Notes: generated by a model not told the origin, from the letters alone. Counted from the first letter of the stretch, positions 10,937 through 60,188 are shown. The stretch: 64,000 nt of DNA from an uncultured Gemmatimonadaceae bacterium (GCA_964557115.1 CAZKYO010000004.1:53892-117891), one strand, 5' to 3'. Made by a program: numbers and translations.

Positions 10937-10976
10937 CTCGAATCGCGAGTCTCGAATCCCGGTTCTCGATGAAATC
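10937..10976. repeat. solo heptad/14-mer tract (CTCGAATCnCGnnT x3) overlapping the imuB start codon
   Basis: ctcgaatcgcgagt ctcgaatcccggtt ctcgatgaaatc read directly. ATTCGCG-type heptad family. No inverted partner within 170 nt upstream. Confidence 0.7.
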
Positions 10977-12450
10977 CGTCCTCTTCGTCGACCCCCCCGC
11001 CTTCTGCACCACCGTGGCCGCGATGGACGACCCGTCGCTGCGCCACCGGCCGGTCGCGATCGCCCCCCTGGGGGCCGACCGCGCGGTGCTGCTGGCGCTC
11101 TCGGCCGAGGCGCGGCGCGAGGGGCTCGCGCGGGGGACGCCGGTGGCGCTGGCGCGGCGGATCTGCCCCGACCTGATCGTGCGTCCCCCGGAGCCGCGGC
11201 GCTGGGCCCGCGCCCACCGGGCGCTGCACGAGATCCTGTCGCGGGTGGCGCCGGTGATCGAGCCGAAGACGTGGGGGCACTCCTACCTCGACATCACCGG
11301 CACCGAGCGCCTCTTCGGTTCACCCGTCGACGTCGCCCGCCGCCTCGAGCGCGAGGCGCGTGAACGCCTCGGGCTGCCGCTCGCGGTGGGGATCGCGATC
11401 AACAAGCTGGTGAGCGAGACGGCCGCGACGGTCGTCAAGCGCGAGACGGGCGCGCTGATCTGGCCGGTGGCGGCGGGACACGAGGCGGTGTTCCTGGCGC
11501 CCGAATCGGTGGCGCTCCTGCCCGACGTGTCCGACCCGATCCGCGAACGGCTCGACGACTACCACCTCGAGCGGATCGGCGAGGTCGCCGCGCTCGGCGA
11601 ACAGCCGCTCCGGATCGCGTTCGGACGCGCGGGCCGCACCCTGCACCAGCACGCGCACGGCATCGATCGCCGCCCGGTGCTGCCGCCGGCGGTCCGGGCC
11701 GAGTGCCGCGTCGCGCACGTGCTGGCGACCGACACCAACGACCGCGCCGTGCTGCAGCGGCTGCTCCGCGCCATGAGCGAGCGGATCGGCCGCCGGCTCC
11801 GCGAGCGCGGCTACGTGGCGGGACGCCTCCACCTCGCGGTGCGCCACGCCGACGACACGACCGCCGAGCGGCGGGTGCGGCTCGCCGCCTGCACCCTCGA
11901 CGTCGAGCTCTGGCGCGCCGCGTGCGCCGCGCTCGACCAGGCGCTGACGCGGCGCATCGCGGTGCGCAGCGTGACCCTCACCGCCCTGGAGCTCCACGAC
12001 GGCGACGGACAGTTCGAGTTGTGGGAGGACCCCGCGGCCCTCTCGGCGCCGGAGGCCACCGCGCTGCAGCGGGCGGTGGATGGGGTGCGGCGGGTGTTGG
12101 GAGAAAGGCAGGTCCCTCGACTCGCGCCTGCGGCGCTCGCTCGGGATGACAGTGGTGAGGAATCGCCCTTCGCCCCTCACCCTTCGCCGGTCGCCTACCA
12201 GTCCCACGCCTCCAGCCGCTCGGTGCCGTCGTCGTCGACCGACAGCGTCACCAGCAGGTCGCCGTCGAGCACGGCGCGTTCGCTGCGACGCGGCAGCCGC
12301 AGCGTCCGCACCCAGCGGCCGGCGGCGGCGAACAACCGCCAGTCACAGCCGGTGGCGCCGGCCCCGCAGTACCCCGCGACGGCGAGACGGCCGTCGCGCC
12401 CCACGGCCAGCGCGCCGACGAGCGGCACTGTCGCGGCGAACGTGGCATGA
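10969..12450 (+). CDS. imuB: ImuB-like catalytically inactive Y-family DNA polymerase
   Basis: Start at MKSVLFVDPPAFC. Y-family fold motifs are present, but the catalytic DxD is replaced (VDPPAF) and the SIDE Glu is absent (SYLDITG), as in ImuB. dnaE2 lies nearby. The 3' end is uncertain: no stop until 12450, and the last ~85 codons are antisense to the convergent gene. Confidence 0.75.
   Translation: MKSVLFVDPPAFCTTVAAMDDPSLRHRPVAIAPLGADRAVLLALSAEARREGLARGTPVALARRICPDLIVRPPEPRRWARAHRALHEILSRVAPVIEPKTWGHSYLDITGTERLFGSPVDVARRLEREARERLGLPLAVGIAINKLVSETAATVVKRETGALIWPVAAGHEAVFLAPESVALLPDVSDPIRERLDDYHLERIGEVAALGEQPLRIAFGRAGRTLHQHAHGIDRRPVLPPAVRAECRVAHVLATDTNDRAVLQRLLRAMSERIGRRLRERGYVAGRLHLAVRHADDTTAERRVRLAACTLDVELWRAACAALDQALTRRIAVRSVTLTALELHDGDGQFELWEDPAALSAPEATALQRAVDGVRRVLGERQVPRLAPAALARDDSGEESPFAPHPSPVAYQSHASSRSVPSSSTDSVTSRSPSSTARSLRRGSRSVRTQRPAAANNRQSQPVAPAPQYPATARRPSRPTASAPTSGTVAANVA
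12154..12190. repeat. small heptad palindromic element (CTTCGCC/CCTCACC type) in the imuB 3' region
   Basis: ggtgagg aatcg cccttcg cccctca cccttcg cc. Stem ggtgagg/cctcacc. Translated in the imuB frame as GEESPFAPHPSP. Confidence 0.55.
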
Positions 12451-13325
12451 TCGAGCCACTCCTCCACCATGCGGCGCTCCATCTCGGTGCCGGCCTCGCC
12501 GAGGCGCACCGCGCGGTAACGGGCGCGGGCGTCGTCGTCCACCGGCGCGCCCGACTCGTTCCATCGCACGATCCGGCGCACGGCACCGTTCGACCCGCCG
12601 AGACGCACCTCCGCCGCCAGGCCGGTGGCGCGTGCCAGCCAGGGGCCGGCCGTGGCGACCGATGCGACCGCGCCGAAGGCCTGGTCGTGGAGGTTGGGAC
12701 CCAGGTCGGCCAGCACGAAGTCGACCATGCTCGAGTGCATCCAGCCGCTGCTGCCGAGCGGCAGGCCGGTGGCCGAGACGCGGGAGAGCACCAGCGAGTC
12801 GCGATTGAGGCCGGGCTGCATCTGCTTGAAGAAGCGCGCCGCCAGGAGCAGCGACCCGTCGTCGAAGGCGCCGCGCAGTTCCGTGTTGGGCCCGTCGAGG
12901 TCGAGCTGCAGGGTGCGCAGCAGCGCCCCGTCGGGACCGATCACCGTGAGCCGACCGATCCCGAACTCGTAGGCGAAGGCGGTGTCGCCGATCGCCGCGA
13001 CCGAGAGGGCCCGCTGGAACTCGCCCGGGCCGGCGCCCTTCCGCCCGAAGCGCCAGCGCAGCGTCCCGTCGGCCCCGAACGCCAGCACCTCGGCGCTGCC
13101 GCTGTTCGCCACCAGCAGCGTGCCGTCGTCGCGCACCGCAAGGTCGGTCACGTCGAGCAGCGGCGAGCCCTCGCCACCGACGGTCCATCGCGGCGCGGGC
13201 GTGATCACGCTGTCCGGGGCGGCGCTCGTGACGATCGCGATCCCGGCGCTGTCGGTCGCCGCCCCGGGAGGGGGCGCGCCGCGCCCGCCGCAGGCCGCGA
13301 GGAGGAGCGCCAGCGCGAACGCCAT
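12195..13325 (-). CDS. lipoprotein with NHL/6-bladed beta-propeller-like repeats
   Basis: Start chosen at MAFALALLLAACGG (lipobox, 13325). Repeats such as VRDDGTLLVANSGSAEVLAFGADGTLRWRFGRKGAGPGEF. The upstream track extension only translates the palindromic element at 13419-13480. Confidence 0.7.
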   Translation of the reverse strand: MAFALALLLAACGGRGAPPPGAATDSAGIAIVTSAAPDSVITPAPRWTVGGEGSPLLDVTDLAVRDDGTLLVANSGSAEVLAFGADGTLRWRFGRKGAGPGEFQRALSVAAIGDTAFAYEFGIGRLTVIGPDGALLRTLQLDLDGPNTELRGAFDDGSLLLAARFFKQMQPGLNRDSLVLSRVSATGLPLGSSGWMHSSMVDFVLADLGPNLHDQAFGAVASVATAGPWLARATGLAAEVRLGGSNGAVRRIVRWNESGAPVDDDARARYRAVRLGEAGTEMERRMVEEWLDHATFAATVPLVGALAVGRDGRLAVAGYCGAGATGCDWRLFAAAGRWVRTLRLPRRSERAVLDGDLLVTLSVDDDGTERLEAWDW

Positions 13326-13418
13326 CCCCGCCTCGCCGCGACCGGGGACCGGATCGGGGCGCTCCTGGATCTCGAGGGACGGCAGGATCACGGCTCGCAT
13401 GCCGAGAACTATATCCGC

Positions 13419-13480
13419 GAGATTCGCGATTGGAGACTCGAGATCCGGAAAGGCCCCTCGAATCTCCGATCGCGAATCAC
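13419..13480. repeat. heptad-arm palindromic element, ATTCGCG family
   Basis: Left gagattcgcgattggagactcgag vs reverse complement of right gtgattcgcgatcggagattcgag (21/24 match), 14-nt spacer. Lies in the divergent spacer between the propeller lipoprotein gene and tag. Confidence 0.8.
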
Positions 13481-13501
13481 GATCCTCCGCCTGAGGCACC
13501 C

Positions 13502-14029
13502 ATGAGCTCCTACTGTGACATCGCCCCGGGCCATCCGGTCCACGGGCCGTACCACGACACCGAGTACGGCTTCCCGCTCCGCGACGACGCGGGGCTGTTC
13601 GAGCGGCTGGTGCTCGAGATCAACCAGGCCGGCCTGTCGTGGCTGACGATCCTGAAGAAGCGCGAGGCGTTCCGCGCGGCCTACCGCGGCTTCGATCCGC
13701 ACGTGGTGGCGCGCTTCGGCGCGCGCGACCGCGCCCGGCTGCTGGCCGACGCCGGGATCATCCGCAACCGCCTCAAGGTCGACGCGGCGATCCACAACGC
13801 GAGGCGGCTCGTGGTGCTGATCGACGAGCACGGTTCGTTCGCCGACTGGCTCGACCGGCAGGGCACGCTGTCGAAGGCCGAATGGGTGAAGGCGATGAAG
13901 CGCGAGTTCCGCTTCATGGGCGGCGAGATCGTCGGCGAGTTCCTGATGAGCATCGGCCGGCTGCCGGGGGCGCACGCACCAGGGTGTCCGGTCGCGAAGC
14001 AGCTGGCGCGCCGCGCGCGGCGCGCCTGA
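13502..14029 (+). CDS. tag: DNA-3-methyladenine glycosylase I
   Basis: Start at MSSYCDIAPG. YHDTEYGFP, LEINQAGLSWLTILKKREAFR and FMGGEIVGEFLMSIG are Tag hallmarks. Confidence 0.9.
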   Translation: MSSYCDIAPGHPVHGPYHDTEYGFPLRDDAGLFERLVLEINQAGLSWLTILKKREAFRAAYRGFDPHVVARFGARDRARLLADAGIIRNRLKVDAAIHNARRLVVLIDEHGSFADWLDRQGTLSKAEWVKAMKREFRFMGGEIVGEFLMSIGRLPGAHAPGCPVAKQLARRARRA

Positions 14030-14101: not shown

Positions 14102-17100
14102 ATGAGCTTCACTCACCTCCACGTCGCCTCCTGGTTCTCCTTCGGCCGCGGCGCCTCGTCCCCCGAGGCGCTGGTGCAGGCCGCGGCGCGGCGCGGCTTC
14201 CGCGTGCTGGCGCTCACCGACACCAACGGCGCGTACGGCGCGGTCGAGTTCCAGAAGGCCTGCGACGCCGCGGGGATCCGCCCGATCCTCGGCGCGCGGC
14301 TGGTGACCCGCGCCCATCGCGCGGTGGTGCTCGCCGAGGACGCCCGGGGATGGGCCGCGCTCTGCCGCGCCGTCACCGCGATCCACTGGGACGCCGACCT
14401 CGCCCTCTCGGCGCAGCTGGCGGTCGATCGCCAGGGGCTGACGGTGCTCTCCGACGACGCCGACCTGCTCGAGCGCCTGGTGAAGCTCTCCGGCCCCGCC
14501 GGGATCTGCGCCGAGCTGATCCCCGGCCCCGATCGCCACCGGGTGCTCGCCGCGGCGCGGCGCCTGGGCCTCCCCGCGGTCGTCACCGGCGGCGTGGTGA
14601 TGGCCAACGCCGAGGACTGGCCGAGGCAGCGGATGATCGAGGCCATACATCGGAATGGCGTGCTGGACGAGGGCGGCGAGGGGCGACAGGCGACGGGCGA
14701 CGGGCGCACCGACGCTCCTGTCGCCTGTCGCGTGTCGCCTGTCGCGCCCCGCGACGCGTGGCTGCGCCCGGCACCGGAGCTCGAGCGGCATTTCCCCGAC
14801 GTCCCCGACGCCTTCGCCGCCGCCGGCGTGATCGCCGAGCGATGCCAGTTCCGGCTGCCGCTGGGCCAGACGATCGCGCCGCGGGTGGCCGACGCCGGCC
14901 ACGCGCTCGAGCGGTTGCGCACCCTCGCCTACGCCGGCGCGATGCGGCGCTACGGCACCATCGCGCCGGTGACCCGCGACCGGCTCGAGCACGAGCTCGC
15001 GATCATCGGGATGAAGGGGTTCGCCGACTACTTCCTGATCGTGCGCGACATCGTCGACCACGGCCCCACCCACTGCGGCCGCGGTTCGGTCGCGAACTCG
15101 ATCGTCTCCTACTGCCTGGGCATCACCCACGTCGAGCCGCTCGGCGCGGGGCTGCTGTTCGAGCGCTTCCTCAACCCCGCGCGCCGGGATCCGCCCGACA
15201 TCGACCTCGACTTCCCGTGGGACGAGCGCGACCGGATCCTGGCGTGGGTCTTCCGCCAGTGGCCCAGGCCGCGGGCGGCGATGGTGAGCAACCACAACTG
15301 CCTGCGGCTCGCCGGGGCGCTGCGCGAGGTGGCCAAGGTGCACGGCCGGCCCGCGAACGAGATCCGCGAGGTGACGCGCCGGGTGCCCCACTACGACCCC
15401 GGCGACGACCCGCGGGCGCTGTTCCGCGACCACCCCAACTTCCGCGACCTCCGGCTGCCGCGCGCCTGGCAGGACTACGCGGTGCAGGCGGCCGCGCTGG
15501 TCGGCACGCCGCGCCACCTCTCGCTGCACCCCGGCGGCGTGGTGATCGTCCCCGGCGCGCTCACCGACACGGTGCCGATCGAGCCGGCCGCCAAGCGACT
15601 CGACGGCGCCCCCGACCTCACCGTGCCGGTGATCCAGTTCGAGAAGGACGGCGCCGAGGACGCCGGCCTGGTCAAGATCGACCTGCTCGGCAACCGCTCC
15701 CTGGCGGTGATCCGCGACGCGATCGCGATGGTGCGGACCGGCACCGGCGTGCAGCTCGACTACACCTCGCACGCGGCGGGCGACGACCCCGCCACCCGGG
15801 CGCTCTTCCGCACCGGCGACACGCTGGGCGTCTTCTACACCGAGTCGCCGGCGTCGAGGATCCTCAACCTCAAGTCGCGGGCCGAGAGCTATGACCTGCT
15901 GGTGCTCAACACGTCGATCATCCGGCCGGCCAGCAACAAGTGGATCACCATCTACCTCGAACGGCTGCACGGCACGCCGTACGAACCGCTCGATCCGTCG
16001 CTGCGCGACGTGCTGGCCGAGACGTTCGGGGTGATGGTCTACCAGGAGGACGTCGTCAACGTCGCCCACGTCTTCGCCGGCCTCGACTGGGCCTCCGCCG
16101 ACGGGCTCCGCAAGGCGCTCTCCAAGAAGCGCCCCGAGAAGCACCTCGCGGCGTACGCCGACGAGTTCGTCCGCGGCGCCGCGGCGCTCGGCCGCGACCC
16201 CGCCACGACCGGGAAGGTGTGGGAGAACATCCTCGCCTTCGCCGGCTACTCGTTCTGCAAGGGGCACTCGTGCTCCTACATCCAGGTCGCGCAGCAGAGC
16301 TGCTACCTGCGCGCCAACCACCCGGCCGAGTTCATCGCCGCGGTGCTCGCCAACGGCGGCGGCTTCTACCGACCGTTCGCCTACGTGGCCGAGGCGATGC
16401 GGATGGGCGTGACCGTGCTGCCGCCCGACGTGAACGCGAGCGCGTGGCGGTGCACCGGGCGGGACCGCGAGCTGCGGGTCGGCCTCCAGTTCATCAAGGG
16501 ACTCTCCACCGCCGGCGCCGACGCCCTCGTGGCGGCCCGCGAGGCGGACGGGCCGTTCGCGTCGCTCGACGACCTGCGCCGCCGCACCGCGCTGTCGCGC
16601 GACGACCTGCGATTGCTCGTCAAGGTCGGCGCCTGCGACGCGATCGCCGCCGGACGGCACCGGCCGGAGCTGCTGTGGGCGGTGGATGTCATCCCGCCCT
16701 CGCTCGCCACCCGAGCGAGCGGCGGGATCTCCGAGGTCGCCACGCCCCGACCCGCTGCGTCACGGGTCGGAGCGTTCACGGCCTCGGAGGCCCCGCCGCT
16801 CGGGCTGAAGCCCGAGGGCGGGGCGATCCCCCGCCTCCGCGACTACCCGCCCGAGCGCAAGCGCCAGGACGCGTGGGCGCTGCTCGGCTTCTGCACCGAC
16901 GCCCATCCGATGACGCTGCACGCGGCCTCGCTCCGCCGCTTCCGCCTGGCGCGCAGCACCGAGCTGCACCGCCACGTCGGCAAGCGGGTGCTGATGGCGG
17001 GGATGTACACCACCGGCAAGCCGGTCCACACCGCGAAGCACGAGCCGATGCAGTTCGCCACTTTCGACGACGGGCACGGCCTGGTCGAGTGCGTCCTCTT

Positions 17101-17257
17101 CCCCGACGTGTACGCCGAGCGGAGCCACGTCCTCTTCGACCAGGGACCGTTCCTGTTCCGGGGGATCGTGGAGGAGTCGTTCGGGGCGATCACCGTGACC
17201 GTGACACACCTGGAGCGGCTGGAGCGTATGTTGGGCCGGATGAACCGAGATTCGTGA
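14102..17257 (+). CDS. dnaE2: error-prone DNA polymerase III alpha-like subunit DnaE2 (ImuC)
   Basis: 1051-aa ORF with PHP domain start MSFTHLHVASWFSFGRGASSPEALV, PDIDLDF, LVKIDLLGNRSL, SYCKGHSCSY-type motifs. Length and lack of a C-terminal tau-binding region fit DnaE2. Confidence 0.95.
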   Translation: MSFTHLHVASWFSFGRGASSPEALVQAAARRGFRVLALTDTNGAYGAVEFQKACDAAGIRPILGARLVTRAHRAVVLAEDARGWAALCRAVTAIHWDADLALSAQLAVDRQGLTVLSDDADLLERLVKLSGPAGICAELIPGPDRHRVLAAARRLGLPAVVTGGVVMANAEDWPRQRMIEAIHRNGVLDEGGEGRQATGDGRTDAPVACRVSPVAPRDAWLRPAPELERHFPDVPDAFAAAGVIAERCQFRLPLGQTIAPRVADAGHALERLRTLAYAGAMRRYGTIAPVTRDRLEHELAIIGMKGFADYFLIVRDIVDHGPTHCGRGSVANSIVSYCLGITHVEPLGAGLLFERFLNPARRDPPDIDLDFPWDERDRILAWVFRQWPRPRAAMVSNHNCLRLAGALREVAKVHGRPANEIREVTRRVPHYDPGDDPRALFRDHPNFRDLRLPRAWQDYAVQAAALVGTPRHLSLHPGGVVIVPGALTDTVPIEPAAKRLDGAPDLTVPVIQFEKDGAEDAGLVKIDLLGNRSLAVIRDAIAMVRTGTGVQLDYTSHAAGDDPATRALFRTGDTLGVFYTESPASRILNLKSRAESYDLLVLNTSIIRPASNKWITIYLERLHGTPYEPLDPSLRDVLAETFGVMVYQEDVVNVAHVFAGLDWASADGLRKALSKKRPEKHLAAYADEFVRGAAALGRDPATTGKVWENILAFAGYSFCKGHSCSYIQVAQQSCYLRANHPAEFIAAVLANGGGFYRPFAYVAEAMRMGVTVLPPDVNASAWRCTGRDRELRVGLQFIKGLSTAGADALVAAREADGPFASLDDLRRRTALSRDDLRLLVKVGACDAIAAGRHRPELLWAVDVIPPSLATRASGGISEVATPRPAASRVGAFTASEAPPLGLKPEGGAIPRLRDYPPERKRQDAWALLGFCTDAHPMTLHAASLRRFRLARSTELHRHVGKRVLMAGMYTTGKPVHTAKHEPMQFATFDDGHGLVECVLFPDVYAERSHVLFDQGPFLFRGIVEESFGAITVTVTHLERLERMLGRMNRDS
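14683..14746. repeat. heptad-arm palindromic element (GCGACAG/CTGTCGC family) inside the dnaE2 reading frame
   Basis: gcgacag gcgacgg gcgacgg g - cgcaccgacgct - cc tgtcgcc tgtcgcg tgtcgcc tgtcgcg. Translated as GRQATGDGRTDAPVACRVSPVA, and the ORF stays open. Confidence 0.85.
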
Positions 17258-17344
17258 CTCGAGACTCGCGATTCGCGGAAACCACGACGAGAGCGAGGCC
17301 CGGGATGACACCCTCCAATCGCGAATCACGAATCGCGACTCTCC
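17249..17344. repeat. heptad-arm palindromic element, ATTCGCG family, spanning the dnaE2 stop and the next gene start
   Basis: Left gattcgt gactcga gactcgc gattcgc (17249-17276); right ccaatc gcgaatc acgaatc gcgactc (17315-17341). The dnaE2 TGA (17255-17257) lies in the left arm, and the ATG at 17305 lies in the spacer. Confidence 0.8.
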
Positions 17345-19975: not shown

Positions 19976-19979
19976 CGCA

Positions 19980-20083
19980 GCGATACGAGACGCGCGACAC
20001 GCGACCGGCCCCGGAGAAACACTCAATGTTCTCCGGGGCCGGTCGCGTGTCACCTGTCGCCTGTCGCGCGTCGCCTGTCGCGG
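19980..20083. repeat. heptad-arm palindromic element (GCGACAG family) with a perfect 23-bp inner stem; likely bidirectional terminator
   Basis: gacacgcgaccggccccggagaa (19996-20018) pairs perfectly with ttctccggggccggtcgcgtgtc (20029-20051), 10-nt loop. The outer right arm is a run of six tandem GTCGCNN heptads (20041-20082): gtcgcgt, gtcacct, gtcgcct, gtcgcgc, gtcgcct, gtcgcgg. Fills a convergent intergenic gap. Confidence 0.85.
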
Positions 20084-21349
20084 CTACTGATCTTCCAGGT
20101 CCGCCAGTGCCTCGACGGCGGCGCGGCGCACCTCGGGATCCCTGTCGGTCAGGGCGCGAGTGATGGCGGGCTTGGCCGCCAGCGCGCCGATGCTCCCGAG
20201 CGTCTCGATCGCGCCCTTGCGGATCTCGACATCCGGATCCGCCACCAGGCCGATCAGCACGCCGGCGCTGGCGGGGTCCTCGATGTTGTCGAGCGCGTTG
20301 ACGACCGCCCGGCGGAGCCGGATGTCGGAAGACGATGCGGCGCGGAGGAGTTCCGGCGGCGCGGCCGCGAGGTTGTCGAGGTCGCCCAGCGCCTCCGCCG
20401 CGGCGACCTGCAGCTCGAGGTCGTCGCCGCCGAGGACCGCCGCGAGCACCGGGGCCGAGCGGGCCGCCTCGATGTTGCCGAGCGCCTCGATCGCGGCCAG
20501 CCGCACGCGGCGATCGTCGTCGCGCTGCACGGTCCGTTCGAGCGCCGGCGCGGCGTCGACGCTCTCGATGTCGCCGAGCGCCTCGGCGGTCGCCCACCGG
20601 ACCGTCGGTTCAGGGTCGCCGAGCAGCGGGAGCAACCCGGCTACCGCCTTGGGATCCTCGATCGTCCCGAGGGCCCAGGCCGCGGTGGTGCGCACGCGGA
20701 CGGAGCGGTGGTCGAGCAGTCGCGTGAGCGGTGCCACCGACGCGCGATCCTCGAGCTCGCCGAGCGCCCAGGCAGCCATGGCCACGACCGCCTCGTCCCC
20801 GGCCGCGAGCAGGCGCTCCACGCGGGGGCGCAGCGCCGGCCGGTCGTGTTCACCGATCGCCAGGAGGGCTGCCTCGCGGATCCGCACCGAGGCGTCGTCC
20901 AGCAAGGCACCCAGCGCCTCGTCGCCGATGGCCGATCCGCCAAGCATCTTCGCGGCGGTGCGGCGGATGCACGGATCGTCGCTCCCGAGCCGACGGGTCA
21001 GTTGCCGGATCGCCGCGGCGTCGCGCACCCGCCCGGAGATCGAATCCTTGGCCGCACGCGCCGCCACACGGGCGTCCGACAGGCGCCCGATGCCGAGTTC
21101 GTCGCCGCCCCACCAGAAGTTGCCGATCTGGTCGCTCAGCATCTCGCAGGCGACCGGATCGGTGCGTCCCATCGCATCCAGCATCATCGCGACCCGGGCC
21201 GAGTCGGGGCCGGGACGGTCGCCGTCCCAGTCGCCGATGTGCAGCGACGACTGCGGCGCGGCGTCCGGCGCCAGGGTGAGCATCGTGGTCGCGGCCGCGG
21301 CCGACCCGGCACCGAGGACGCCCACCAGCAGCAGCACGGTCTTCATCAC
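20084..21349 (-). CDS. secreted HEAT-repeat (PBS-lyase HEAT-like) protein
   Basis: 421-aa ORF with signal peptide and at least 8 repeats of the type D..VR..AA.ALG.I....A...L..LL.D. Confidence 0.85.
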   Translation of the reverse strand: MMKTVLLLVGVLGAGSAAAATTMLTLAPDAAPQSSLHIGDWDGDRPGPDSARVAMMLDAMGRTDPVACEMLSDQIGNFWWGGDELGIGRLSDARVAARAAKDSISGRVRDAAAIRQLTRRLGSDDPCIRRTAAKMLGGSAIGDEALGALLDDASVRIREAALLAIGEHDRPALRPRVERLLAAGDEAVVAMAAWALGELEDRASVAPLTRLLDHRSVRVRTTAAWALGTIEDPKAVAGLLPLLGDPEPTVRWATAEALGDIESVDAAPALERTVQRDDDRRVRLAAIEALGNIEAARSAPVLAAVLGGDDLELQVAAAEALGDLDNLAAAPPELLRAASSSDIRLRRAVVNALDNIEDPASAGVLIGLVADPDVEIRKGAIETLGSIGALAAKPAITRALTDRDPEVRRAAVEALADLEDQ

Positions 21350-23430
21350 TGGCCGCCCTCGTCGCCGAAGTAGTCCACCGCGATGCGGCGGACCTTCGCA
21401 TCGGCGTGGTTGAGGGCGCGCTTGAGCGCGGCGTGGCTCTCCGGCGTCTTCAGCTCGGTGAGCGCCTCCGCGGCCTGCTCTCGCACGTCGCTCGAGGTGT
21501 CATCGAGCAGCCGGATGACGGCCGGGACCGCGGCCGTCACGTGCCGCTCGGCGACGTAGCACGCCGCTTCCTGGCGCACGTCGGCGCTCGGGTCGCCGAG
21601 CAAGCGGGTGAGCTGCGCCTCGGGGATCGTGCCGCCCAGTTCGATCATCGCCTGGATCGCCTCCTGGCGAACGTCGGCATCGGCGTCGCCGAGGGCGGCG
21701 GCGACCGCCGACGCGCTGGAGGGATCGCGGATCTCGCTGAGCGCCTGGATGGCACTCTGTCGCACGTCGGCGTCGGGATCCGTCACCAGTCGCGCGATCG
21801 CGGGGAGTGATTCGCGATCCTTCATCTCGCCGAGCATCTGGATCGCCTCCTGTCGCGTGTCCGGATCCTCGGCGGCGAGCATCTTGCGCACCGGGGCCGC
21901 CGGCACGCCGCGCTCGAAGTTCGAGAGCGCGCCCAGGGCCGCCGAGCGGACGTTCCGGTCGGCGTCGTCGAGCGCGGCGACGAGCGCGGGGATCGCCATC
22001 GGCTCCTCGAGCCGTCCCAGCGCGTGCGCCGCGGCGCGGCGCACGTCGGCGTCGTCGTCGCGGAGTCGCGCCATCAGCGCCCGCACCACGGCCGTGTCGC
22101 CCTTGAGGCCCGCCACCGACTTGCCGTCCAGCATGCCGAGCGCCACCTCGCGCTCCTGGTCGGTCAGGCCGTCGGTTCCGCGACTGACCCGGTTCGAGAA
22201 CGTCCGCGAGATGTTCGTGTTCGTCGCCGTCCGCGTCGCCGTCTCGGTCGACCAGCGGCGCGTGAGGTCTCCGGTGCCATTGTCATTCGGCTGCTCAGGA
22301 CCCACCGGCTCGAGGCCGAGCCGCGCATCCGTCGGCACGCCCGCGGGATCGAACGCGTCGGGGTAGCGCAGGTGGCCCGCGACGCCGGGCGCATAGAACA
22401 CGGTCGCGAGCAGGGCGCCCATCGAGAACACCGTCGCGAGCCGGTTGCCCGCCGGCGGCGCATCGCCGCGCTCGAGAAGGCGGGTGACCCGCGCGCTCAG
22501 CTGGGAGCGCTGCTCGGCCATGCCGGCGACCGGGACGCCGAGCGGCGAGGCCTCGATCCACTCCGCCACCTTCACCAGGCAGCGCGCCAGCGGCACCCCG
22601 CCGCTCCGACGCGCGGCCCACTCGTCAGCGAGGTATTCGGCCGACTCCTGGATGTTGCGTCGGGCCAGCCGGTTGAGCGGCTGGAAGAAGAAGAGTCGCT
22701 CGAGGACGCAGGAGAACGACAGCCACTGCGGGTCGCGGCGGACCAGGTGGGCCAGTTCGTGCGCCAGCATCGCCCGCCGCTGCGCCGGCTCGAGATCGTC
22801 GAGCGCCGCCTGGGGCAGGCAGATCTCGCGGCGGCCAAGGGCCACCGGACTCGAGATCGCCTGCGACGCGGTGAGGTGGATGCGGCGACGAACCCCCGCC
22901 TCCTCGCTGAGGCTTGCGAGCAGGCCCCGCCATTCGTCATCACCCACGCCGCGCCGGTCGCCGAGACGACCGACGAGGATCAGGCGGCGACCGGCATACC
23001 AGGTCACCAGGAGCAGCGCGAGCACCCCCCACGCCAGCGTCAGGATCGTGCCGACGGACGGCGCCGACGCCGATGGCGTGGTCGCCACGCCTCCGGCCTC
23101 GCGGGCCGACTGCCCGGCCGGGTCGGTCTGGCGTTCGCGTCGGACCGGGACGGGATCGACCGGGTCGGCGACCGCACCCGTCGGGTCGGAGACGGTCGGC
23201 GCCGGTGTCGCCGCCAGCGCGACCGTGCCGGTCGGATGCACGTCGAAACCCGACTGGACGGTCGCGGTCACCACCCCGCCGATCATCGCGACCTTCCAGA
23301 GCACGTCACGCACGGCCGGATCCGACCGGCGCAGGCGGAGCACCAGCCACGCCAGCCCGAGCAGCGCCGTCGAGTGGAGCGCGTACGTCAGCAGCCACGC
23401 CGCGACGTCCTGGGCAATCGTGCTGTTCAC
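21346..23430 (-). CDS. BlaR1/MecR1-like M56 peptidase signal transducer with C-terminal HEAT-repeat domain
   Basis: 694-aa ORF with N-terminal TM helices and M56 zinc motif AMLAHELAHLVRRD. There is no penicillin-binding domain; the last ~300 aa are HEAT repeats (DADVRRAAAHALGRLEEPMAIPALVAALDDADRNVR...). 4-nt overlaps with both neighbours. Confidence 0.85.
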   Translation of the reverse strand: MNSTIAQDVAAWLLTYALHSTALLGLAWLVLRLRRSDPAVRDVLWKVAMIGGVVTATVQSGFDVHPTGTVALAATPAPTVSDPTGAVADPVDPVPVRRERQTDPAGQSAREAGGVATTPSASAPSVGTILTLAWGVLALLLVTWYAGRRLILVGRLGDRRGVGDDEWRGLLASLSEEAGVRRRIHLTASQAISSPVALGRREICLPQAALDDLEPAQRRAMLAHELAHLVRRDPQWLSFSCVLERLFFFQPLNRLARRNIQESAEYLADEWAARRSGGVPLARCLVKVAEWIEASPLGVPVAGMAEQRSQLSARVTRLLERGDAPPAGNRLATVFSMGALLATVFYAPGVAGHLRYPDAFDPAGVPTDARLGLEPVGPEQPNDNGTGDLTRRWSTETATRTATNTNISRTFSNRVSRGTDGLTDQEREVALGMLDGKSVAGLKGDTAVVRALMARLRDDDADVRRAAAHALGRLEEPMAIPALVAALDDADRNVRSAALGALSNFERGVPAAPVRKMLAAEDPDTRQEAIQMLGEMKDRESLPAIARLVTDPDADVRQSAIQALSEIRDPSSASAVAAALGDADADVRQEAIQAMIELGGTIPEAQLTRLLGDPSADVRQEAACYVAERHVTAAVPAVIRLLDDTSSDVREQAAEALTELKTPESHAALKRALNHADAKVRRIAVDYFGDEGGQ

Positions 23431-23819
23431 CGGTCCTCCTTGGCGCGATCCTCGGCCTGATCGATCATCGAACGGAGCCGGGCCAGATCACCCGGGGCGA
23501 CTTCCTGCGACGTGAGGAGATGGGTCATCAGCGCGGCCACGTCTCCGGCGAAGAGCCGCTCGGTGAGGTCGCTCACCATCGATTCCTTCACCTCGGCCTC
23601 GCTCACGAGCGCGCGGTAGAGGTACTGCCGCTGCTCCGCACGACGGGCGACGACCCCCCGGCGTTCCAGCCGGGTCAGCAACGTCGCGACGGTGGTCTGC
23701 GCCAGGCCGCGCTCCCGATGGAGCACTTCCCAGACATCCGCCACGCTGGCCTCTCCCCTCGACCAAAGCAGACGGAGGATCGTGACCTGCAGTTCAGTGA
23801 GTTCATGTGGTTCGGGCAT
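23427..23819 (-). CDS. BlaI/MecI/CopY family transcriptional repressor
   Basis: 130-aa ORF. LTELQVTILRLLWSRGEASVADVWEVL...TTVATLLTRLERRGVV..R...R.Y.Y is the winged-helix signature of the family. Confidence 0.9.
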   Translation of the reverse strand: MPEPHELTELQVTILRLLWSRGEASVADVWEVLHRERGLAQTTVATLLTRLERRGVVARRAEQRQYLYRALVSEAEVKESMVSDLTERLFAGDVAALMTHLLTSQEVAPGDLARLRSMIDQAEDRAKEDR

Positions 23820-28217: not shown

Positions 28218-28228
28218 CAAGCAGGAAG

Positions 28229-28337
28229 GCGAGAACGCTGGGGGATTGTCACCCCGAGCGCAGCGAGGGGGCGGAGCCGGATGGTCGAGCTCCGCCCCCT
28301 CGGTCGCTGGGCTCCCTCGGGGTGACGGCGTTCTCGC
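28229..28337. repeat. 109-nt imperfect palindrome (GTCACCCCGAG...CGAGGGGGCGGAGC core), non-heptad family; likely bidirectional terminator
   Basis: gcgagaacgc...gtcaccccgag...cgagggggcggagc / 11-nt loop / gctccgccccctcg...ctcggggtgac...gcgttctcgc. Fills the gap between convergent yceI-like and cls genes. Confidence 0.8.
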
Positions 28338-28338
28338 G

Positions 28339-29866: not shown

Positions 29867-29915
29867 CCTTCTCTGTATTCTGTTCTCTGTTCTCCGTTCT
29901 CTGTCCTCTCCTCTA
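29867..29915. repeat. solo tract of 7 tandem heptamers (GTTCTCT type), pyrimidine-rich on the + strand
   Basis: ccttctc tgtattc tgttctc tgttctc cgttctc tgtcctc tcctcta. Ends 10 nt before the DUF72 ATG. No inverted partner in the 90 nt to the left. Confidence 0.8.
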
Positions 29916-33334: not shown

Positions 33335-33363
33335 GGGGAATCGCCGTCAGCTCGAAAGCCGAC

Positions 33364-33391
33364 GACCCGCGGTAGATTGCCACCGCGGGTC
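33364..33391 (-). terminator. hairpin downstream of the Fis-type regulator gene
   Basis: gacccgcgg - 10 nt loop - ccgcgggtc (perfect 9-bp stem), 40 nt after the stop at 33431. Confidence 0.45.
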
Positions 33392-42058: not shown

Positions 42059-42201
42059 CCCCGAGGAGGTGGTGGATCGCTGTCGGCGTGAAGGGGAAAG
42101 GATACGTCCATCGCCGACCGCGCACCAACGGCACGGGGCCGGCCCCATCGCTGGAACCGACCCCGGTCGCTTGTCACCCGCCCCCGCGGGCGCAGCGCCT
42201 C

Positions 42202-42882: not shown

Positions 42883-43096
42883 GGAAAGCCTCCTGTCTAG
42901 TCGGGTCCTGCTGCTCACCCCGGCAAGGAGCGAGCATCATGCCATGCCGCAAGTCATTGCCACAAAACGACTTGCCAAGAGCGGCCCCGGGGCCCGGCGT
43001 CCTCCAGGATGGACACTTGTCCACCGCGGCCCGGCGCCGGTGATAACTTGTGGCCCCGTCGCGAGACGCGATCAACGACAGCAGGGAGCGGGCTTC

Positions 43097-51327: not shown

Positions 51328-52931
51328 GCGAGCAGGACATGATGGACGAGGCGATCGTCGCGCTGCAGCGGGAATACCTGCGCGAGGCGCCCGCGCGCCT
51401 GGCCGAGCTCCGGAAGGACCTCACGGCGTTCCGGGCCGGCGAGGCCGACGCCCTCGAGTCGCTCCGGGTCCGCTTCCATCGGCTGGCCGGCTCCGGCGGC
51501 TCCTACGGCTTCCCTCGCGTGACCGAGATCGCGCGGGCGCAGGAGCAGCGCATCCTGACGCCGCCGGCGCCGACGCCCCAGGAGGCCGACCAGTTCGAGG
51601 AGGCGATCGACGCCCTCAAGGAAGCGCTCGACGCGACGATCCCGGATCCGGCCACGCCGCCCACCGCCGGCGGCAAGCTCCCCGCCTTCGGCTGGCGCAC
51701 CACGCTGCTGATGCCGGACTCGCCGCTGCGGCAGGAGCTGATCCGGGCGCTCGACGAGGTCGGCTTCATGGTCACCGTGCACGAGACCGACGTCGACCCG
51801 TGGAGCGTCCCGGCGACCGAGCGTCCCGACCTCGTCGTGGTCGGGACCGATCTCGGCGACGACCCGCTGACGCTGGCCCGCTACTGGGCGGCCGCGACGC
51901 CGGACCGTCCCCGCGCCGTGGTCATCGCCGACCCCGTCGAGCGGTACGACCGGCTGCGCACCGCGGCGGCCGGCGTGGACGCCGTGTTCGGTCCGTCGTC
52001 GCTGCCGCGCGGCCTGACGCAGTACGCCAGGGCGCTGGTGCAGATCGGCGCGCCGCCGGCCAACGTCGTGGTCGTCGAGGACGACCCGGCGCAGGCGCAG
52101 CTCTACGCCACCTGGCTCAACCAGATCAATGCCCGGGTCTCGGTGTGCGGCAGCGCCCAGGTCGCGCGCGACACGCTCATGAACGAGACGCCGGACCTCG
52201 TGCTCCTGGACGTGGACCTGCCGGACGTGGACGGCTACGCCCTCGCCCGGATGATGCGGCAGGAACCGCGACTCGCGCTGGTGCCGATTGTCTTCCTCAC
52301 CGCGCGGCAGACGGTGGCCGACGAGATGGAGGGACTCCGCGCCGGCGGCGACGACTTCCTGATCAAGCCGGTCGAGCAGAACCACCTGCTCCAGGTGGTG
52401 CTCACGCGCACCGAGCGGGGCCGCCGGATCCGGGAGCTGGTGCATCGCGACGGGCTGACCGGGGTGCTCAACCACGCGACCCTGATGGCGGAGCTGGAGC
52501 ACGCGATCGCCTACGCCGGCCGGCACGGCGAGCCGCTGTCCTTCCTGATGCTCGACCTCGACCACTTCAAGCGCGTCAACGACACCTTCGGCCACCTGGT
52601 CGGCGACCAGGTGCTGATGCACGTGGCCCGCGTCTTCCGGAAGGGCGTGCGGAACTCCGACCTCCTCGGCCGCTACGGCGGCGAGGAGTTCGGGATCATC
52701 CTGCGCCGCTGCCCGCCGGGCAACGGCCGCGTCATCGCCGAGAAGCTGCGCACGATGCTGGCGGAGTCGCCGATGGCGCCGGCCGGCGGTCCCGAGATCG
52801 CGCTGCGCGCCAGCATCGGCGTGGCGGCGTTCCCGGGCTCCGGCCGCACCGCGACCGAGGTCGCCGCGGCGGCCGACCTGGCGCTCTACCGCGCCAAGAG
52901 CGCGGGCCGCGACCGGGTGGAGATGGCCTGA
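51324..52931 (+). CDS. Hpt - degenerate receiver - receiver - GGDEF diguanylate cyclase
   Basis: Hpt motif FHRLAGSGGSYGF; receiver LVLLDVDLPDVDG...DFLIKP; GGDEF domain with RYGGEEFG active site and DxLT start (DGLTGVLN). 4-nt overlap with the TrmB gene. Confidence 0.85.
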   Translation: MSEQDMMDEAIVALQREYLREAPARLAELRKDLTAFRAGEADALESLRVRFHRLAGSGGSYGFPRVTEIARAQEQRILTPPAPTPQEADQFEEAIDALKEALDATIPDPATPPTAGGKLPAFGWRTTLLMPDSPLRQELIRALDEVGFMVTVHETDVDPWSVPATERPDLVVVGTDLGDDPLTLARYWAAATPDRPRAVVIADPVERYDRLRTAAAGVDAVFGPSSLPRGLTQYARALVQIGAPPANVVVVEDDPAQAQLYATWLNQINARVSVCGSAQVARDTLMNETPDLVLLDVDLPDVDGYALARMMRQEPRLALVPIVFLTARQTVADEMEGLRAGGDDFLIKPVEQNHLLQVVLTRTERGRRIRELVHRDGLTGVLNHATLMAELEHAIAYAGRHGEPLSFLMLDLDHFKRVNDTFGHLVGDQVLMHVARVFRKGVRNSDLLGRYGGEEFGIILRRCPPGNGRVIAEKLRTMLAESPMAPAGGPEIALRASIGVAAFPGSGRTATEVAAAADLALYRAKSAGRDRVEMA

Positions 52932-53013
52932 ATCGAGGTTTGCGAATCGAGACCGGCGAATCGAGGGCCAGGCACCGGCGCCTCGAATCTCCAGTCTCGA
53001 CTCGCGAATCTCC
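52930..53013. repeat. palindromic element, ATTCGCG-related, 14-nt period in the left arm
   Basis: gaatcgaggtttgc gaatcgagaccggc gaatcgaggg ... cctcgaatctccagtctcgactcgcgaatctcc. Fills the convergent gap between the GGDEF gene and lon. Confidence 0.7.
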
Positions 53014-53015
53014 TC

Positions 53016-55556
<2,541 letters not shown>

Positions 55557-57826: not shown

Positions 57827-57827
57827 C

Positions 57828-57925
57828 GCGACAAGCGACCCGCGACAGGCGGCAGGTGCAAGCGAAAAGGCCGGCTCCCCTCGGGGACGCCGGCCTTCTG
57901 CGCATGTCGCCCGTCGCGTGTCGCT
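57828..57925. repeat. heptad-arm palindromic element (GCGACAG family) with inner hairpin; likely bidirectional terminator
   Basis: gcgacaa gcgaccc gcgacag gcggcag gtgcaag - aaggccggc tcccc tc gggga c gccggcctt - ctgcgca tgtcgcc cgtcgcg tgtcgct. The last heptad overlaps the E1 stop codon, and TTTT follows the hairpin on the minus strand. Confidence 0.85.
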
Positions 57926-60041
57926 AGAACGCCAGGATCTCGTCCATCGCGCGGCGCAGGGACTCGACCTGCGGCAGGATCACGTCCTCGAGCTCCGGCG
58001 CGTAGGCGACGAAGGTGTCGGTGGCGGCGACGCGGCGCACCGGCGCGTCGAGCCAGGCGAAGTGGTCGTCGGCGATGCGGGCCGCGATCTCGGCGCCGTA
58101 GCCCCACGACAGCGAGTCCTCGTAGGCGACGATCACCCGGTTGGTCTTGGCCACCGACGCGCCGATCGTCTCCCAGTCCACCGGATTGAGCGAGCGGAGG
58201 TCGATCACCTCGACCCGCCGGCCGGTCTCCTCGGCGAGCTGCCGCGCCGCCTGCACCGCGCGCTGCACCACGGCGCCGTAGGTGATCACCGTCGCGGCGT
58301 CGCCCTCGTGCACCACCTTCGCCTTGCCGAACGGCACCATGAAGTTGGGCCCCGGATAGGCGCCCTTGTTGTAGGTCTGGCGATAGAGGTGCTTGTGCTC
58401 CAGGAACAGCACCGGGTCCTCGGAGCGGATCGCGGTGCGGAGCAGCCCGTTGGCGTCGAGGGCGGTGGCCGGACAGACGACCCGGAGCCCGGGCACGCCG
58501 GTGAAGATCGCGGCGCCGGTCTGCGAGTGGTACACCGAGCCGCCCTTGAGGTAGCCGCCGTAGGTGACGCGGACGACGACCGGCGCGCTGAAGGCGTTGT
58601 TCGACCGCCAGCGCATCAGCGCCAGCTCGTCGCGCAGCTGCATGTAGGCGGGCCAGATGTAGTCGAAGAACTGGATCTCGACCACCGGCTTCATGCCGCG
58701 GGTGGCCAGGCCGATGGCCCGGCCGACGATGTTCGCCTCGGCAAGCGGCGAGTTGTAGACGCGGCGGCCGCCGAACTGCTTCTGCAGCCCCCACGTCACC
58801 TTGAAGACGCCGCCCTTCCCCTTGACCGCCTCGAGGTTCCCCTCGCGCGAGCAGTCGGCCACGTCCTCGCCGAAGACCACGATCCGCGGGTCGCGGGCCA
58901 TCTCGTCCTTGAGGCACGCGTTGAGCAGGTCGACCATGGTGGTCGGCTCGCCGCTCGACTGCGGGTCGTCCTCGGTGTCGAACTGCTCGGCGGTCGGATC
59001 GACGTCGGGCGAGTAGACGAACCGCTCGATCGTCTCCGGGCCGGGCTGCGGCGAGGCGAGCGCCACCTCGGTCGCGACGGTGACCTCGTCGTCGGCCTGC
59101 TGCCGGATCAGCTCCAGCTCCGACTCGGTCGCGATGCCCTGGTCGACCAGGTAGCGCGGGAAGGTCACCAGCGGATCGCGGGCCGCGTCGGCGTCGCGCT
59201 CGGTGGTCGGGCGGTAGTGGACCTCGTCGTCGGACAGCGAGTGCGAGTACGGCCGGATGACGTGCGCGTGCACCAGCGCCGGCCCCTTCCGCTGCCGGGC
59301 GTAGTCGTGCGCCTTGAGCATCGCCTCGTGCGAGGCGAGCGGGTCGCACCCGTCGACCTCCTGCACGAACAGCCCCGGGAACGAGGCGACGAGCTTGCTG
59401 ATCGAGCCGCCGGCGGTGTTGACCTCGACCGGGACCGAGATCGCGTAGCCGTTGTCCTCGATCAGGTAGACGACCGGCAGCTTGAGGTTGCAGGCCGAGT
59501 TGAGCGATTCCCAGAACTCGCCCTCGCTGGTGGTGCCGTCGCCCGAGGTGCAGAGCACCACCTCGTCGCCGCGGCTCAGGTCGGCCAGCTCCATGGCGCC
59601 CTCGGACCGCATCCCGGTCTCCGCCGCCCCGACCGCCTGGAGGAACTGGGTCCCCGTCGGCGACGACGTCGAGACGATGTTGAGGTCGCGGTGGCCCCAG
59701 TGCGACGGCATCTGGCGGCCGCCGGAGTTGGGATCATCCGCCGCCGCGACGGCCGAGAGGAGCTGCTCGGTGGCGGTCATCCCGAGGCCGAGGCAGAGCG
59801 CCCGGTCGCGGTAGTAGAGGTAGAACCAGTCGTGGCCGGCGCGGAACACCTTCGCGGTCGCGGCCAGCACCGCCTCGTGGCCGGCGCCGGAGATCTGGAA
59901 GAAGATCCGGTTCTGGCGCTTGAGCTGGATTTCCTTGTCATCCAGCCGACGCGACAGGTACATCACCCGGTAGAGGTCGAGCAGCTCCGACTTGTCGAGT
60001 CGGGTGGCCGCCTTGGAGCGGGATGCGGTGCGGGTAGCCAT
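57924..60041 (-). CDS. fused alpha/beta E1 component of a 2-oxoacid dehydrogenase (TPP-dependent)
   Basis: Start at MATRTASRS (60041). The alpha part has the TPP motif [10 protein letters not shown]; the beta part has FGEDV..... GGVF ... transketolase-like pyrimidine and C-terminal domains. The upstream track extension only translates the palindromic element. Confidence 0.9.
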
Positions 60042-60083
60042 GCCCGGAAAATGGCCCGGCAGGAGGGGTTCGGGAAGGGCGGC

Positions 60084-60188
60084 TGAATGGTGAATGGTGA
60101 ACGGTGAATGGGGGTGCCCCCGTCGGTCCGGAGCCCTCCCGGCGACCGGGCCGACCCCCCATTCACCATTCACGATTCACCATTCTCC
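60084..60188. repeat. heptad-arm palindromic element (GGTGAAT/ATTCACC family)
   Basis: tgaatgg tgaatgg tgaacgg tgaatgg - 47-nt GC-rich spacer with inner inverted repeat gtcggtccgg/ccgggccgac - ccattca ccattca cgattca ccattct. Lies between the amidohydrolase stop and the E1 start (same strand). Confidence 0.9.

Follow-up and report, generated by a model that had tools for sequence, protein, structure and literature searches.

A 64-kb stretch of DNA from an uncultured Gemmatimonadaceae bacterium (GCA_964557115.1, CAZKYO010000004.1:53892-117891; hereafter the window, to whose full length all window counts refer) contains a dispersed set of mostly palindromic elements whose arms are tandem arrays of a degenerate 7-nucleotide (nt) unit, and which are densest in the gaps between convergent genes. 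With slightly better than even confidence, we favour a model in which these arrays are the stem-extending arms of terminator-type or 3′-end-protecting hairpins, built by slippage in 7-nt steps and by copying from one arm to the other, with the copies inside genes as by-products. An earlier note on the same DNA had listed 13 of the loci, and we say below where its claims hold and where they do not.

Tandem tracts in the window were counted by period, with expectations taken from first-order Markov simulations. Period 7 gave 14 tracts of 3–7 units each where 0.9 were expected, so that the observation is real and not a chance effect; periods 4, 5, 8, 10 and 11 gave zero or one tract each, and the six tracts of period 12 are consistent with coding repeats. 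Tandem Repeats Finder (TRF) returned period-7 arrays at all coordinates of the earlier note and, together with inspection of the sequence, confirmed tracts at each of the 13 loci, at the proposed density of about one per 5 kb. Most were described as inverted tracts around a spacer, and this is correct: ten loci have two inverted arms (13419, 14683, 17249, 19980, 39552, 44443, 52930, 54404, 57828 and 60084) separated by 9–55 nt, and four have a single arm (10937, 12154, 29867 and 41824). Nine of the ten two-armed loci fold with z-scores of −4 to −9 relative to dinucleotide shuffles, and their minimum free energies (MFEs) range from −39 to −78 kcal/mol. The GC hairpin that the spacers were said often to contain is clear as a separate structure at three loci (19980, 57828 and 60084). 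The elements are as follows, with the strand where one was assigned; two plain hairpins that serve as comparators and one unrelated tract close the list.

10937–10969: weak single array, TCGAATC GCGAGTC TCGAATC CCGGTTC, with a 14-nt period, ending at the ATG of an imuB-like gene.
12154–12197: single pyrimidine-strand array, TCGCCCT TCGCCCC TCACCCT TCGCCGG TCGCC, with a short GGTGAGG partner, at the 3′ end of the imuB-like open reading frame (ORF) and abutting the stop codon of the convergent gene, which makes this a convergent overlap.
13417–13486: two-armed, GAGATTC GCGATTG GAGACTC GAGATCC, a 9-nt spacer and the inverted arm; MFE −38.9 kcal/mol, z −5.0; between an unannotated ORF (− strand) and the tag glycosylase gene (+ strand).
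14672–14751, + strand: two-armed, GCGACAG/GCGACGG units, in frame in dnaE2 at codons ~190–217; −68.2 kcal/mol, z −6.8.
17247–17344, + strand: two-armed, GAGATTC GTGACTC GAGACTC GCGATTC ... AATCGCG AATCACG AATCGCG, poorly paired (z −2.4); the dnaE2 stop codon falls within the left arm, and the first codons of an S15 peptidase gene are covered by the right one.
19976–20083: two-armed, GCGACAC/GCGACAG units, with a longer right arm and a central GC hairpin; −77.7 kcal/mol, z −8.7; fills the convergent gap between a glyoxalase gene and a HEAT-repeat gene.
29867–29915: single array of ~7 units, GTTCTCT on the + strand and GAGAACA on the − strand, in the divergent gap between a PLD-type gene and a DUF72 gene.
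39552–39652: two-armed, GTGAAGG/CTTCACC units, with additional units in the right arm; −62.3 kcal/mol, z −8.0; fills the convergent gap between an SDR gene and an FG-GAP protein gene.
41824–41855, − strand: single array of GCGACGG, three to four units on the − strand, in the coding sequence of the FG-GAP protein; absent from the earlier list.
44443–44560, + strand: two-armed, GAGACTC GAGATTC GCGATCG GCGATTC ... three units of GAATCGC, in frame in a PabB/TrpE-like gene; −58.5 kcal/mol, z −4.0.
52930–53015: two-armed, GCGAATC/GAGACCG units with a 14-nt super-period; −49.9 kcal/mol, z −6.8; spans exactly from the TGA of a GGDEF response-regulator gene to the lon stop codon.
54402–54516, − strand: two-armed, GTGAATG/GTGATTG units, in frame in the lon segment that links the N domain to the AAA+ domain; −60.1 kcal/mol, z −4.5.
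57828–57926: two-armed, GCGACAN units, with a central GC hairpin; −69.2 kcal/mol, z −6.9; fills the convergent gap between a Ser/Thr kinase gene and an E1 dehydrogenase gene from stop to stop.
60083–60187, − strand: two-armed, GTGAATG units, with a central GC hairpin; −76.4 kcal/mol, z −9.2; begins directly after the stop codon of an amidohydrolase gene, with the start of the E1 dehydrogenase gene ~45 nt downstream.
5878–5959: comparator, a plain long GC hairpin without tandem units in a convergent gap; −53.3 kcal/mol, −0.65 kcal/nt.
28218–28338: comparator, a plain nested long palindrome without tandem units in a convergent gap; −82.2 kcal/mol, −0.68 kcal/nt.
6869: small tract, CGCAATG three times, unrelated to the heptad elements.

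The elements are concentrated at the 3′ ends of genes. Genes were called from third-position GC (GC3) and annotated by Pfam. Strong hairpins (−0.59 to −0.69 kcal/nt) occupy each of the six convergent gaps that measure 50 nt or more, reaching essentially from one stop codon to the other; four have heptad arms (19980, 39552, 52930 and 57828) and two are the plain comparators. Divergent and tandem gaps are mostly less structured (~−0.2 to −0.55 kcal/nt), with the exception of the tandem gap that contains 60084 (−0.61 kcal/nt). Per kilobase, there are ~6.6 elements in convergent gaps, ~1 in gaps of other kinds and ~0.06 in coding sequence, and six elements (52930, 57828, 19980, 39552, 60084 and 17249) start within 0–10 nt of a stop codon or include one. 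The proposed link with convergent gaps, and with a putative terminator-type role, is thus borne out, although five elements were said to fill such gaps and we count four, all two-armed, with 12154 at a convergent overlap. Canonical terminators consisting of a hairpin and a T-run were no more frequent than expected in the 44–64-kb part of the window (3 found, 3.3 expected), and none stood at a gene end or an element. Measured against a canonical intrinsic terminator, the two-armed elements have the GC-rich stem-loop (nine of ten) but lack the U-tract after the stem. In high-GC species, U tracts are reported to be shorter and terminator stems longer (PMC13613805).

Written on the purine strand and phased, the 24 arms yielded 101 units, in which the first position is G in 94% of cases, the second is H (A, C or T; G in 2%), the third G in 96%, the fourth A in 92%, the fifth and sixth are free (N), and the seventh is S (C or G) in 90%. 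The earlier note had taken the heptamer types to be locus-specific and to share a grammar instead of a consensus. We find that about five variants recur over the 14 loci (GNGAYTC at five, GCGACNN at four, GTGAATG at two, GTGAAGG at two and GAGAACA at one) and that all are variants of one degenerate unit, G-H-G-A-N-N-S, so that a degenerate consensus, GHGANNS, does exist. The template proposed for the opposite strand, N-(T/G)-T-C-N-C-N, holds within the window, where seven of eight distinct unit types contain the GNGA core compared with 2.7 expected by permutation, except that GNGA is followed by A, C or T and not by A or C only. Similarly, the arms labelled ATTCGCG exist, but the label is ambiguous in strand and phase and is better read as GNGAYTC in the 5′ arm and GARTCNC in the 3′ arm. 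The 10937 arm fits the GHGA phase least well of all (2.0 of 3).

As had been proposed, the arms of one element resemble each other more than they resemble other elements: their consensus units differ at a mean of 0.7 positions within an element and at 2.5 of 7 between elements. Deviations from the consensus within arrays are common at positions 2, 5, 6 and 7 (21, 22, 18 and 23, respectively) and rare at G1, G3 and A4 (only 2, 4 and 7; chi-square p = 2e-6). Because the variable positions do not covary between arms, the folds show roughly periodic single mismatches. Given that G1, G3 and A4 are nearly fixed while the free positions fail to covary, the constraint lies partly on the motif itself, beyond pairing. 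In eight of nine arm counts in the window, the purine (GHGA) arm comes first, on the 5′ side, as it does in 21 of 22 counts in Lon-anchored relatives and in 70 of 75 counts in loci from many phyla. This polarity holds on both strands because the elements are dyads, and thermodynamics offers no explanation for it, since both polarities give the same duplex. It matches the order of A-tract, hairpin and U-tract in bidirectional terminators, and may also match purine-rich sense strands that extend up to the dyad centre. The arms of one element need not match in length: unit numbers are unequal at 19980 and 39552 and, in L150, amount to ~17 in one arm and 4 in the other.

Elements are also found inside genes. 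Three two-armed copies are translated in frame according to the sequence, in dnaE2 (14683), the pabB-like gene (44443) and lon (54404); the earlier count of four within coding sequences therefore needs adjustment, as the single arm at 41824 has to be added, a stop codon and a start codon are both overlapped by 17249, and the 3′ end of imuB contains 12154. The dnaE2 copy, which encodes ...GGEGRQATGDGRTDAPVACRVSPVAPR..., falls between the PHP match (residues 5–98) and the DNA_pol3_alpha match (271–530), in a poorly conserved part after PHP. The pabB-like copy lies between the N-terminal and chorismate-binding Pfam domains, in a segment ~22 amino acids longer than in Escherichia coli PabB. The lon copy encodes a peptide that includes HSPITNHHS, and one of its units reads CGTCAAT in place of GGTGAAT exactly where an in-frame TGA would arise. 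Across 120 Lon homologues, the linker varies from 32 to 79 amino acids. In several close homologues, the linker peptides imply other heptads (GERVKGEGE...SPSPITLDPSP and TGDG...SPVAGRS), the unit type of P0005 being taken as GCGACAG-like solely from the peptide TGDG...SPVAGRS, and L007 carries four units of AGTCGGC with an inverted partner at the lon linker site. A large clade of Gemmatimonadota Lon homologues (P0038–P0105) has a common linker peptide, ...SQ(A/T)SGEVP..GGVPGAAEVPPPA..., with an internally repetitive look; it could be an old, decayed repeat element that has become fixed in the protein.

Comparison of orthologous loci shows how these elements change. The best named homologues of the window Lon carry metagenome-assembled genome (MAG) labels of Gemmatimonadales or Gemmatimonadota, and the close relatives are syntenic contigs in which the Lon gene is 78–88% identical to that of the window at the nucleotide level. 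In the gap between lon and the GGDEF gene, the window has heptads of the GAGATTC type, L001 has three copies of the octamer AAGATTGA on each side of a GC hairpin (2930–3040), L202 has five units of GGTCGAT/AGTCGAT around a similar GC hairpin, and L203 and L204 have a plain GC hairpin only. Heptads that occupy the kinase/E1 gap and the site upstream of E1 in the window are absent from L203, in which no array with a score of at least 10 was found in 22.5 kb. Array density is lineage-specific: per kilobase, it is 0.22 in the window, 0.4 in L001 and ~0.04 in distant Gemmatimonadota. Directly downstream of the lon stop codon, at least nine of 76 more distant Gemmatimonadota contigs have tandem-unit arms of period 7 or 8, with units that are all different, and most such arms in relatives flank a central hairpin. 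In L003 and L005, which have lower GC, the hairpin inside the tandem arms is a canonical terminator with a U-tract, preceded in L005 by an A-tract. Period 8 is the next commonest non-coding period in the Lon-anchored set (20 tracts). The period-8 arms around the lon terminator read AAGATTGA, CGCTTCCC and CCCTTACC (among L001, L003, L005 and L006), and L006 carries four copies of CCGTCTGA 3′ of lon. This last unit is similar to the core of the Neisseria DNA uptake sequence, probably by coincidence.

Because orthologous loci carry different units or plain hairpins, what these comparisons show is not the insertion of a fixed sequence but an architecture that either persists as its unit is replaced or arises anew, time after time, at the same sites. 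They also speak to an artefact: independent metagenome assemblies of relatives show the same architecture at the same loci, from which we conclude that the elements do not stem from assembly.

Similar arrays extend well beyond this lineage. A scan of 185,579 species genomes for three units of GGTGAAN returned at least 120 loci, of which 80 were listed. Those listed include Bacteroidota, Alphaproteobacteria (Mesorhizobium), Gammaproteobacteria (Methylotuvimicrobium), Planctomycetota, Bacillota, Chloroflexota, Acidobacteriota and others, and Gemmatimonadales account for 12 of the 80. In the 8-kb loci around the matches listed, period-7 tracts far exceed other periods, adjacent arrays are mostly variants of the same unit, and 75 of 288 arrays (about a quarter) have an inverted partner. 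The T3/C4/C6 (GNGA) template, which holds in the window, is only weakly enriched in distant Gemmatimonadota (16 of 33 compared with 11.1 expected) and is not enriched in other phyla among heptamers unrelated to GGTGAA (4 of 34 compared with 4.7 expected); we therefore reject a universal GNGA grammar across phyla. Some loci outside Gemmatimonadota are extreme: L087 (a Desulfobacteraceae MAG), L116 and L149 (Methylotuvimicrobium/Methylomicrobium), L117 (Mesorhizobium), L140 and L151 (Bacteroidota). L087 has 13 period-7 tracts in 5.7 kb, including arrays of ~43 units of TTTCACC and ~20 units of GAATGGT, and several loci reach 10 tracts in 8 kb, where related variants of the unit adjoin one another.

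The earlier note regarded the architecture as undescribed, which is not the case. Xanthomonas genomes each contain ~185 (GGGANTN)n arrays in which positions 1–4 and 6 are conserved (Rehm et al. 2015, PMC4692102). These typically have ~4 units and form 70–75 convergent inverted pairs per genome; ~90% are intergenic, at a mean of 28 nt from the upstream ORF, with some overlapping the stop codon; none is on a plasmid, and length and sequence vary between close relatives (PMC4692102). The window elements are likewise tandem degenerate heptamers with fixed and free positions, in inverted pairs that are close together, mostly intergenic, and near or overlapping the upstream stop codon; GGGANTN fits the GNGA core, and the window units GCGAATC and GCGATTC are one base away from GGGAATC. 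They differ in that Xanthomonas uses one G-tract unit with G-quadruplex potential, whereas position 2 is G in only 2% of window units, several unit variants coexist, two-armed copies dominate (10 of ~14), conserved genes contain three strong two-armed copies that are translated in frame, and the host belongs to a different phylum. Among the window arrays, GGG appears only in some runs of GCGACGG or GTGAAGG. Because position 2 is almost never G, most window arrays lack GGG runs, and for these we reject the G-quadruplex proposed in Xanthomonas.

Heptanucleotides more generally were found by Mrazek et al. in 2007 to be the commonest long simple-sequence repeats in most genomes, with polymerase slippage as the proposed cause, as summarised in PMC4679880, and arrays are described in cyanobacteria (Calothrix PCC7601), in Nostoc (GGGGA(Y)T) and in Beggiatoaceae (TAACTGA) (PMC4679880, PMC4692102). 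As far as these summaries describe them, such repeats resemble the present elements in the favoured period of 7, the intergenic position and the scatter across lineages, but most of them run in one direction only, as lone direct repeats, and many precede start codons, whereas the Gemmatimonadales elements are mainly palindromic and at 3′ ends. In Haemophilus and Actinobacillus, inverted pairs of uptake signal sequences (USSs) form terminator stems, so that one short motif builds both arms (PMC5217627). With such bidirectional or long-stem terminators, the window elements share the convergent position directly after stops, the polarity from purine to pyrimidine and the USS-like reuse of a motif in both arms; unlike them, they have no U-tract, their stems are tandem repeats, and copies also lie inside genes and in 5′ regions. 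A search of the literature found no report of such heptamer repeats in Gemmatimonadota. The elements are not a new class, since heptamer repeats of the Xanthomonas and cyanobacterial type are already known; what is distinct here is the non-G second position, the coexisting unit variants, the two-armed majority, the in-frame copies and the replacement of units at orthologous terminators.

Taken together, these data lead us to infer a function in termination or stabilisation, and slippage with template switching as the generator. In this Gemmatimonadales host of 71% GC, long stems directly after stop codons would most likely act as terminators, as 3′-end-protecting hairpins or as both, and those in convergent gaps would serve both genes bidirectionally. 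Their stems are made or lengthened by tandem copies of a degenerate heptamer, which stands in the 5′ arm and faces its complement in the 3′ arm. The arms themselves would be simple-sequence repeats that grow and shrink by replication slippage in steps of 7 nt, and sometimes of 8 nt in relatives, while their similarity would be upheld by copying across the palindrome through template switching between inverted repeats. Such a process would recur locally, often flanking a pre-existing GC terminator hairpin, which would account for orthologous loci with different units. Copies inside genes would be by-products that survive only in inter-domain linkers able to tolerate 25–40 extra low-complexity residues, and only in versions free of stop codons. 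We favour this explanation because of the position of the elements, the strength of their stems, the lack of canonical terminators, the unequal unit numbers of the arms, the plain hairpins at orthologous sites and the absence of a mobile-element signature.

Several observations weigh against the hairpin model. Slippage followed by selection for pairing does not predict the constraint on G1, G3 and A4, and fully independent local origins would not lead one to expect one unit family at up to five loci in 64 kb. Efficient termination should be harmful inside essential genes, yet very stable hairpins lie within dnaE2 (−68 kcal/mol) and lon (−60 kcal/mol). No U-tract follows the stems, and folding of both strands revealed no consistent advantage of the transcribed strand from G–U pairing. 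Finally, neither a strict stem search nor the MFE of the 50-nt flanks revealed an independent hairpin beside the arrays in excess of controls, these flanks being no more structured than control windows; because they show no general excess of structure, the step in which arms nucleate on a terminator rests on few orthologous comparisons.

The motif constraint is the starting point for a different reading, which we consider possible but unlikely: that the arrays are platforms for a sequence-specific factor that reads GHGA/TCDC every 7 nt on single-stranded RNA or DNA. Suitable readers would be an OB-fold or cold-shock-type domain for each heptamer, or a ring-shaped RNA-binding protein, and the inverted layout would arise mainly since each convergent transcript needs a purine array in its own 3′ untranslated region. 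Such a factor would account for the 92–96% conservation of G1, G3 and A4 over 101 units alongside free positions 2, 5 and 6 without covariation, for the strong purine-first polarity, for the single arrays at 29867, 41824 and 10937, and for the retention of the motif at 17249 despite poor pairing; Xanthomonas units also combine fixed and free positions, and binding to direct repeats of a heptamer, one protein to each unit, is reported for Bacillus subtilis CspB (PMC4679880). Yet no candidate protein was found, relatives use off-motif units and 8-mers at the same loci, the GNGA core is only weakly enriched in distant Gemmatimonadota and not enriched among unrelated heptamers of other phyla, and the strong pairing of most elements would hide single-stranded sites. 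Nor does Rho suit the role: at its primary binding site, each protomer reads 10 nt (bioRxiv 10.1101/2022.08.29.505764), whereas TC recurs every 7 nt in the pyrimidine arm, and because of this mismatch in register we also reject the arrays as Rho loading sites.

We think it rather improbable that the elements are functionless mutational debris, produced by a lineage-specific property of replication or repair and persisting where harm is small, at gene ends and in disordered linkers. The lineage-specific densities would suit this proposal, down to the array-free 22.5 kb of L203, as would the copies in coding linkers, the GGTGAAN arrays in many phyla (among the matches listed) and the widespread excess of heptamer repeats, attributed to polymerase slippage in the summary of PMC4679880. 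The motif constraint and the polarity, however, would scarcely come about unless selection or a directed mechanism were at work, and debris would not be expected to accumulate several times more densely in convergent gaps than in divergent and tandem ones. Because every convergent gap of at least 50 nt holds a strong hairpin, selection for structure clearly acts at this position.

Non-autonomous mobile elements of the repetitive extragenic palindromic (REP), bacterial interspersed mosaic element (BIME) or MITE (miniature inverted-repeat transposable element) type, in several subfamilies and mobilised by a transposase such as RAYT elsewhere in the genome, are very improbable: although unit families recur at 5, 4, 2 and 2 loci, the copies are palindromic and mostly intergenic, and the DNA examined is 64 kb of the genome, nothing beyond the degenerate unit is common to the window elements, whose spacers, lengths and unit numbers differ and which have no terminal inverted repeats, target-site duplications or shared internal sequence. 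REPs have one 20–40-nt consensus per family, a conserved 5′ tetranucleotide and an association with RAYT. Like REPs and BIMEs, the window elements are short, abundant intergenic palindromes often found at gene 3′ ends; unlike them, they have tandem-repeat arms, unrelated spacers and only a degenerate 7-nt unit in common. The suggested link to a RAYT or IS200-type mobiliser has no support in the window: the Pfam scan found no transposase, Y1 domain or RAYT among the 49 called proteins, and the nearest thing to one was a partial, sub-threshold match to a phage integrase (9954–10514). The whole window had no Rfam match at gathering thresholds. MITEs are rejected on the absence of conserved termini or interior and on orthologous sites that carry different units around a similar hairpin; because L001 and L202 do so, a local origin is indicated rather than insertion of a family member. 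Rickettsia palindromic elements are 100–150-nt copies of a family consensus that lie in frame in protein genes, with the peptide outside folded domains. They show that in-frame copies would be possible for a mobile element, and the window elements resemble them in being tolerated in frame in conserved genes but share only a 7-nt unit. CRISPR arrays consist of direct repeats of 24–48 nt with unique spacers of similar length, whereas the units here are 7 nt and contiguous and the arrays are inverted, and this identity is rejected too.

The surrounding DNA is ordinary in its gene content, which is chromosomal: imuB-like, tag, dnaE2, peptidases, a sigma factor, lytB, a chemoreceptor, a pabB-like gene with glutamine amidotransferase, PFK, the GGDEF response regulator, lon, the Ser/Thr kinase and the E1 dehydrogenase. 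GC is 70–74% throughout, except for a dip to 62% at 8–10 kb. The region 8001–10600 has this lower GC (62% compared with ~71%) and holds a RibD_C-domain gene besides ORFs without a Pfam match; with the integrase match at 9954–10514, which is partial and below threshold, it may be the remnant of an integrated element. The imuB-like Y-family polymerase gene (10969–12450, +), the tag 3-methyladenine glycosylase gene (13502–14029, +) and the dnaE2-type error-prone polymerase gene (14102–17257, +) form a cluster that resembles a cassette for SOS mutagenesis. Meeting no stop codon, the imuB-like ORF extends for 256 nt into its convergent neighbour (12195–13400), which may reflect a true overlap, a stop codon lost at the heptad array or a sequencing frameshift. 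A BlaR1-type M56 peptidase gene fused to long HEAT repeats (21346–23744, −) adjoins a BlaI/Penicillinase_R repressor gene and is accompanied by a second HEAT-repeat protein gene (20084–21349). Four gaps of 450–650 nt (6692–7141, 10515–10968, 33335–33782 and 42149–42793) have structure of ~−0.5 kcal/nt and no Rfam match, and some of them probably hold genes missed by GC3 calling. Overlapping the last, 42202–42918 (−) is coding: it specifies a small protein, rich in Arg and Asp, that has a signal-like segment at its N terminus and an 11-residue repeat, DRRDVRQDNRI, encoded by 4.4 copies of a 33-nt tandem repeat (42309–42509; TRF score 180–199) that is unrelated to the heptads.

A bolder proposal, which we advance as doubtful, is that the heptad arms are written or maintained by a dedicated system that recognises GHGA at 7-nt intervals and in all cases sets the purine array on the 5′ side of the dyad; candidates would be a sequence-specific nucleic-acid-binding protein, or a nuclease or polymerase activity at terminator hairpins. 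If this were true, the bacterial excess of heptanucleotides, in Xanthomonas, cyanobacteria, Burkholderia, this lineage and the phyla with GGTGAAN arrays, would reflect a common 3′-end biology with lineage-preferred units. Both the bacterial preference for 7-nt repeats and the role of the Xanthomonas and cyanobacterial arrays were unsettled in the papers of 2015 cited here. For Gemmatimonadota, heptad-derived peptides lengthen the disordered linkers of Lon, PabB and DnaE2 and may mislead the alignment and annotation of MAGs. The lineage offers a natural experiment, in which palindromic arrays stand at stop codons in place of canonical terminators, with a fixed polarity and a three-base core, while the unit differs between close genomes. 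It makes approachable the questions of whether tandem-repeat stems serve as terminators or 3′-end protectors, whether a protein reads the GHGA core, and whether arms grow by slippage and cross-arm copying.

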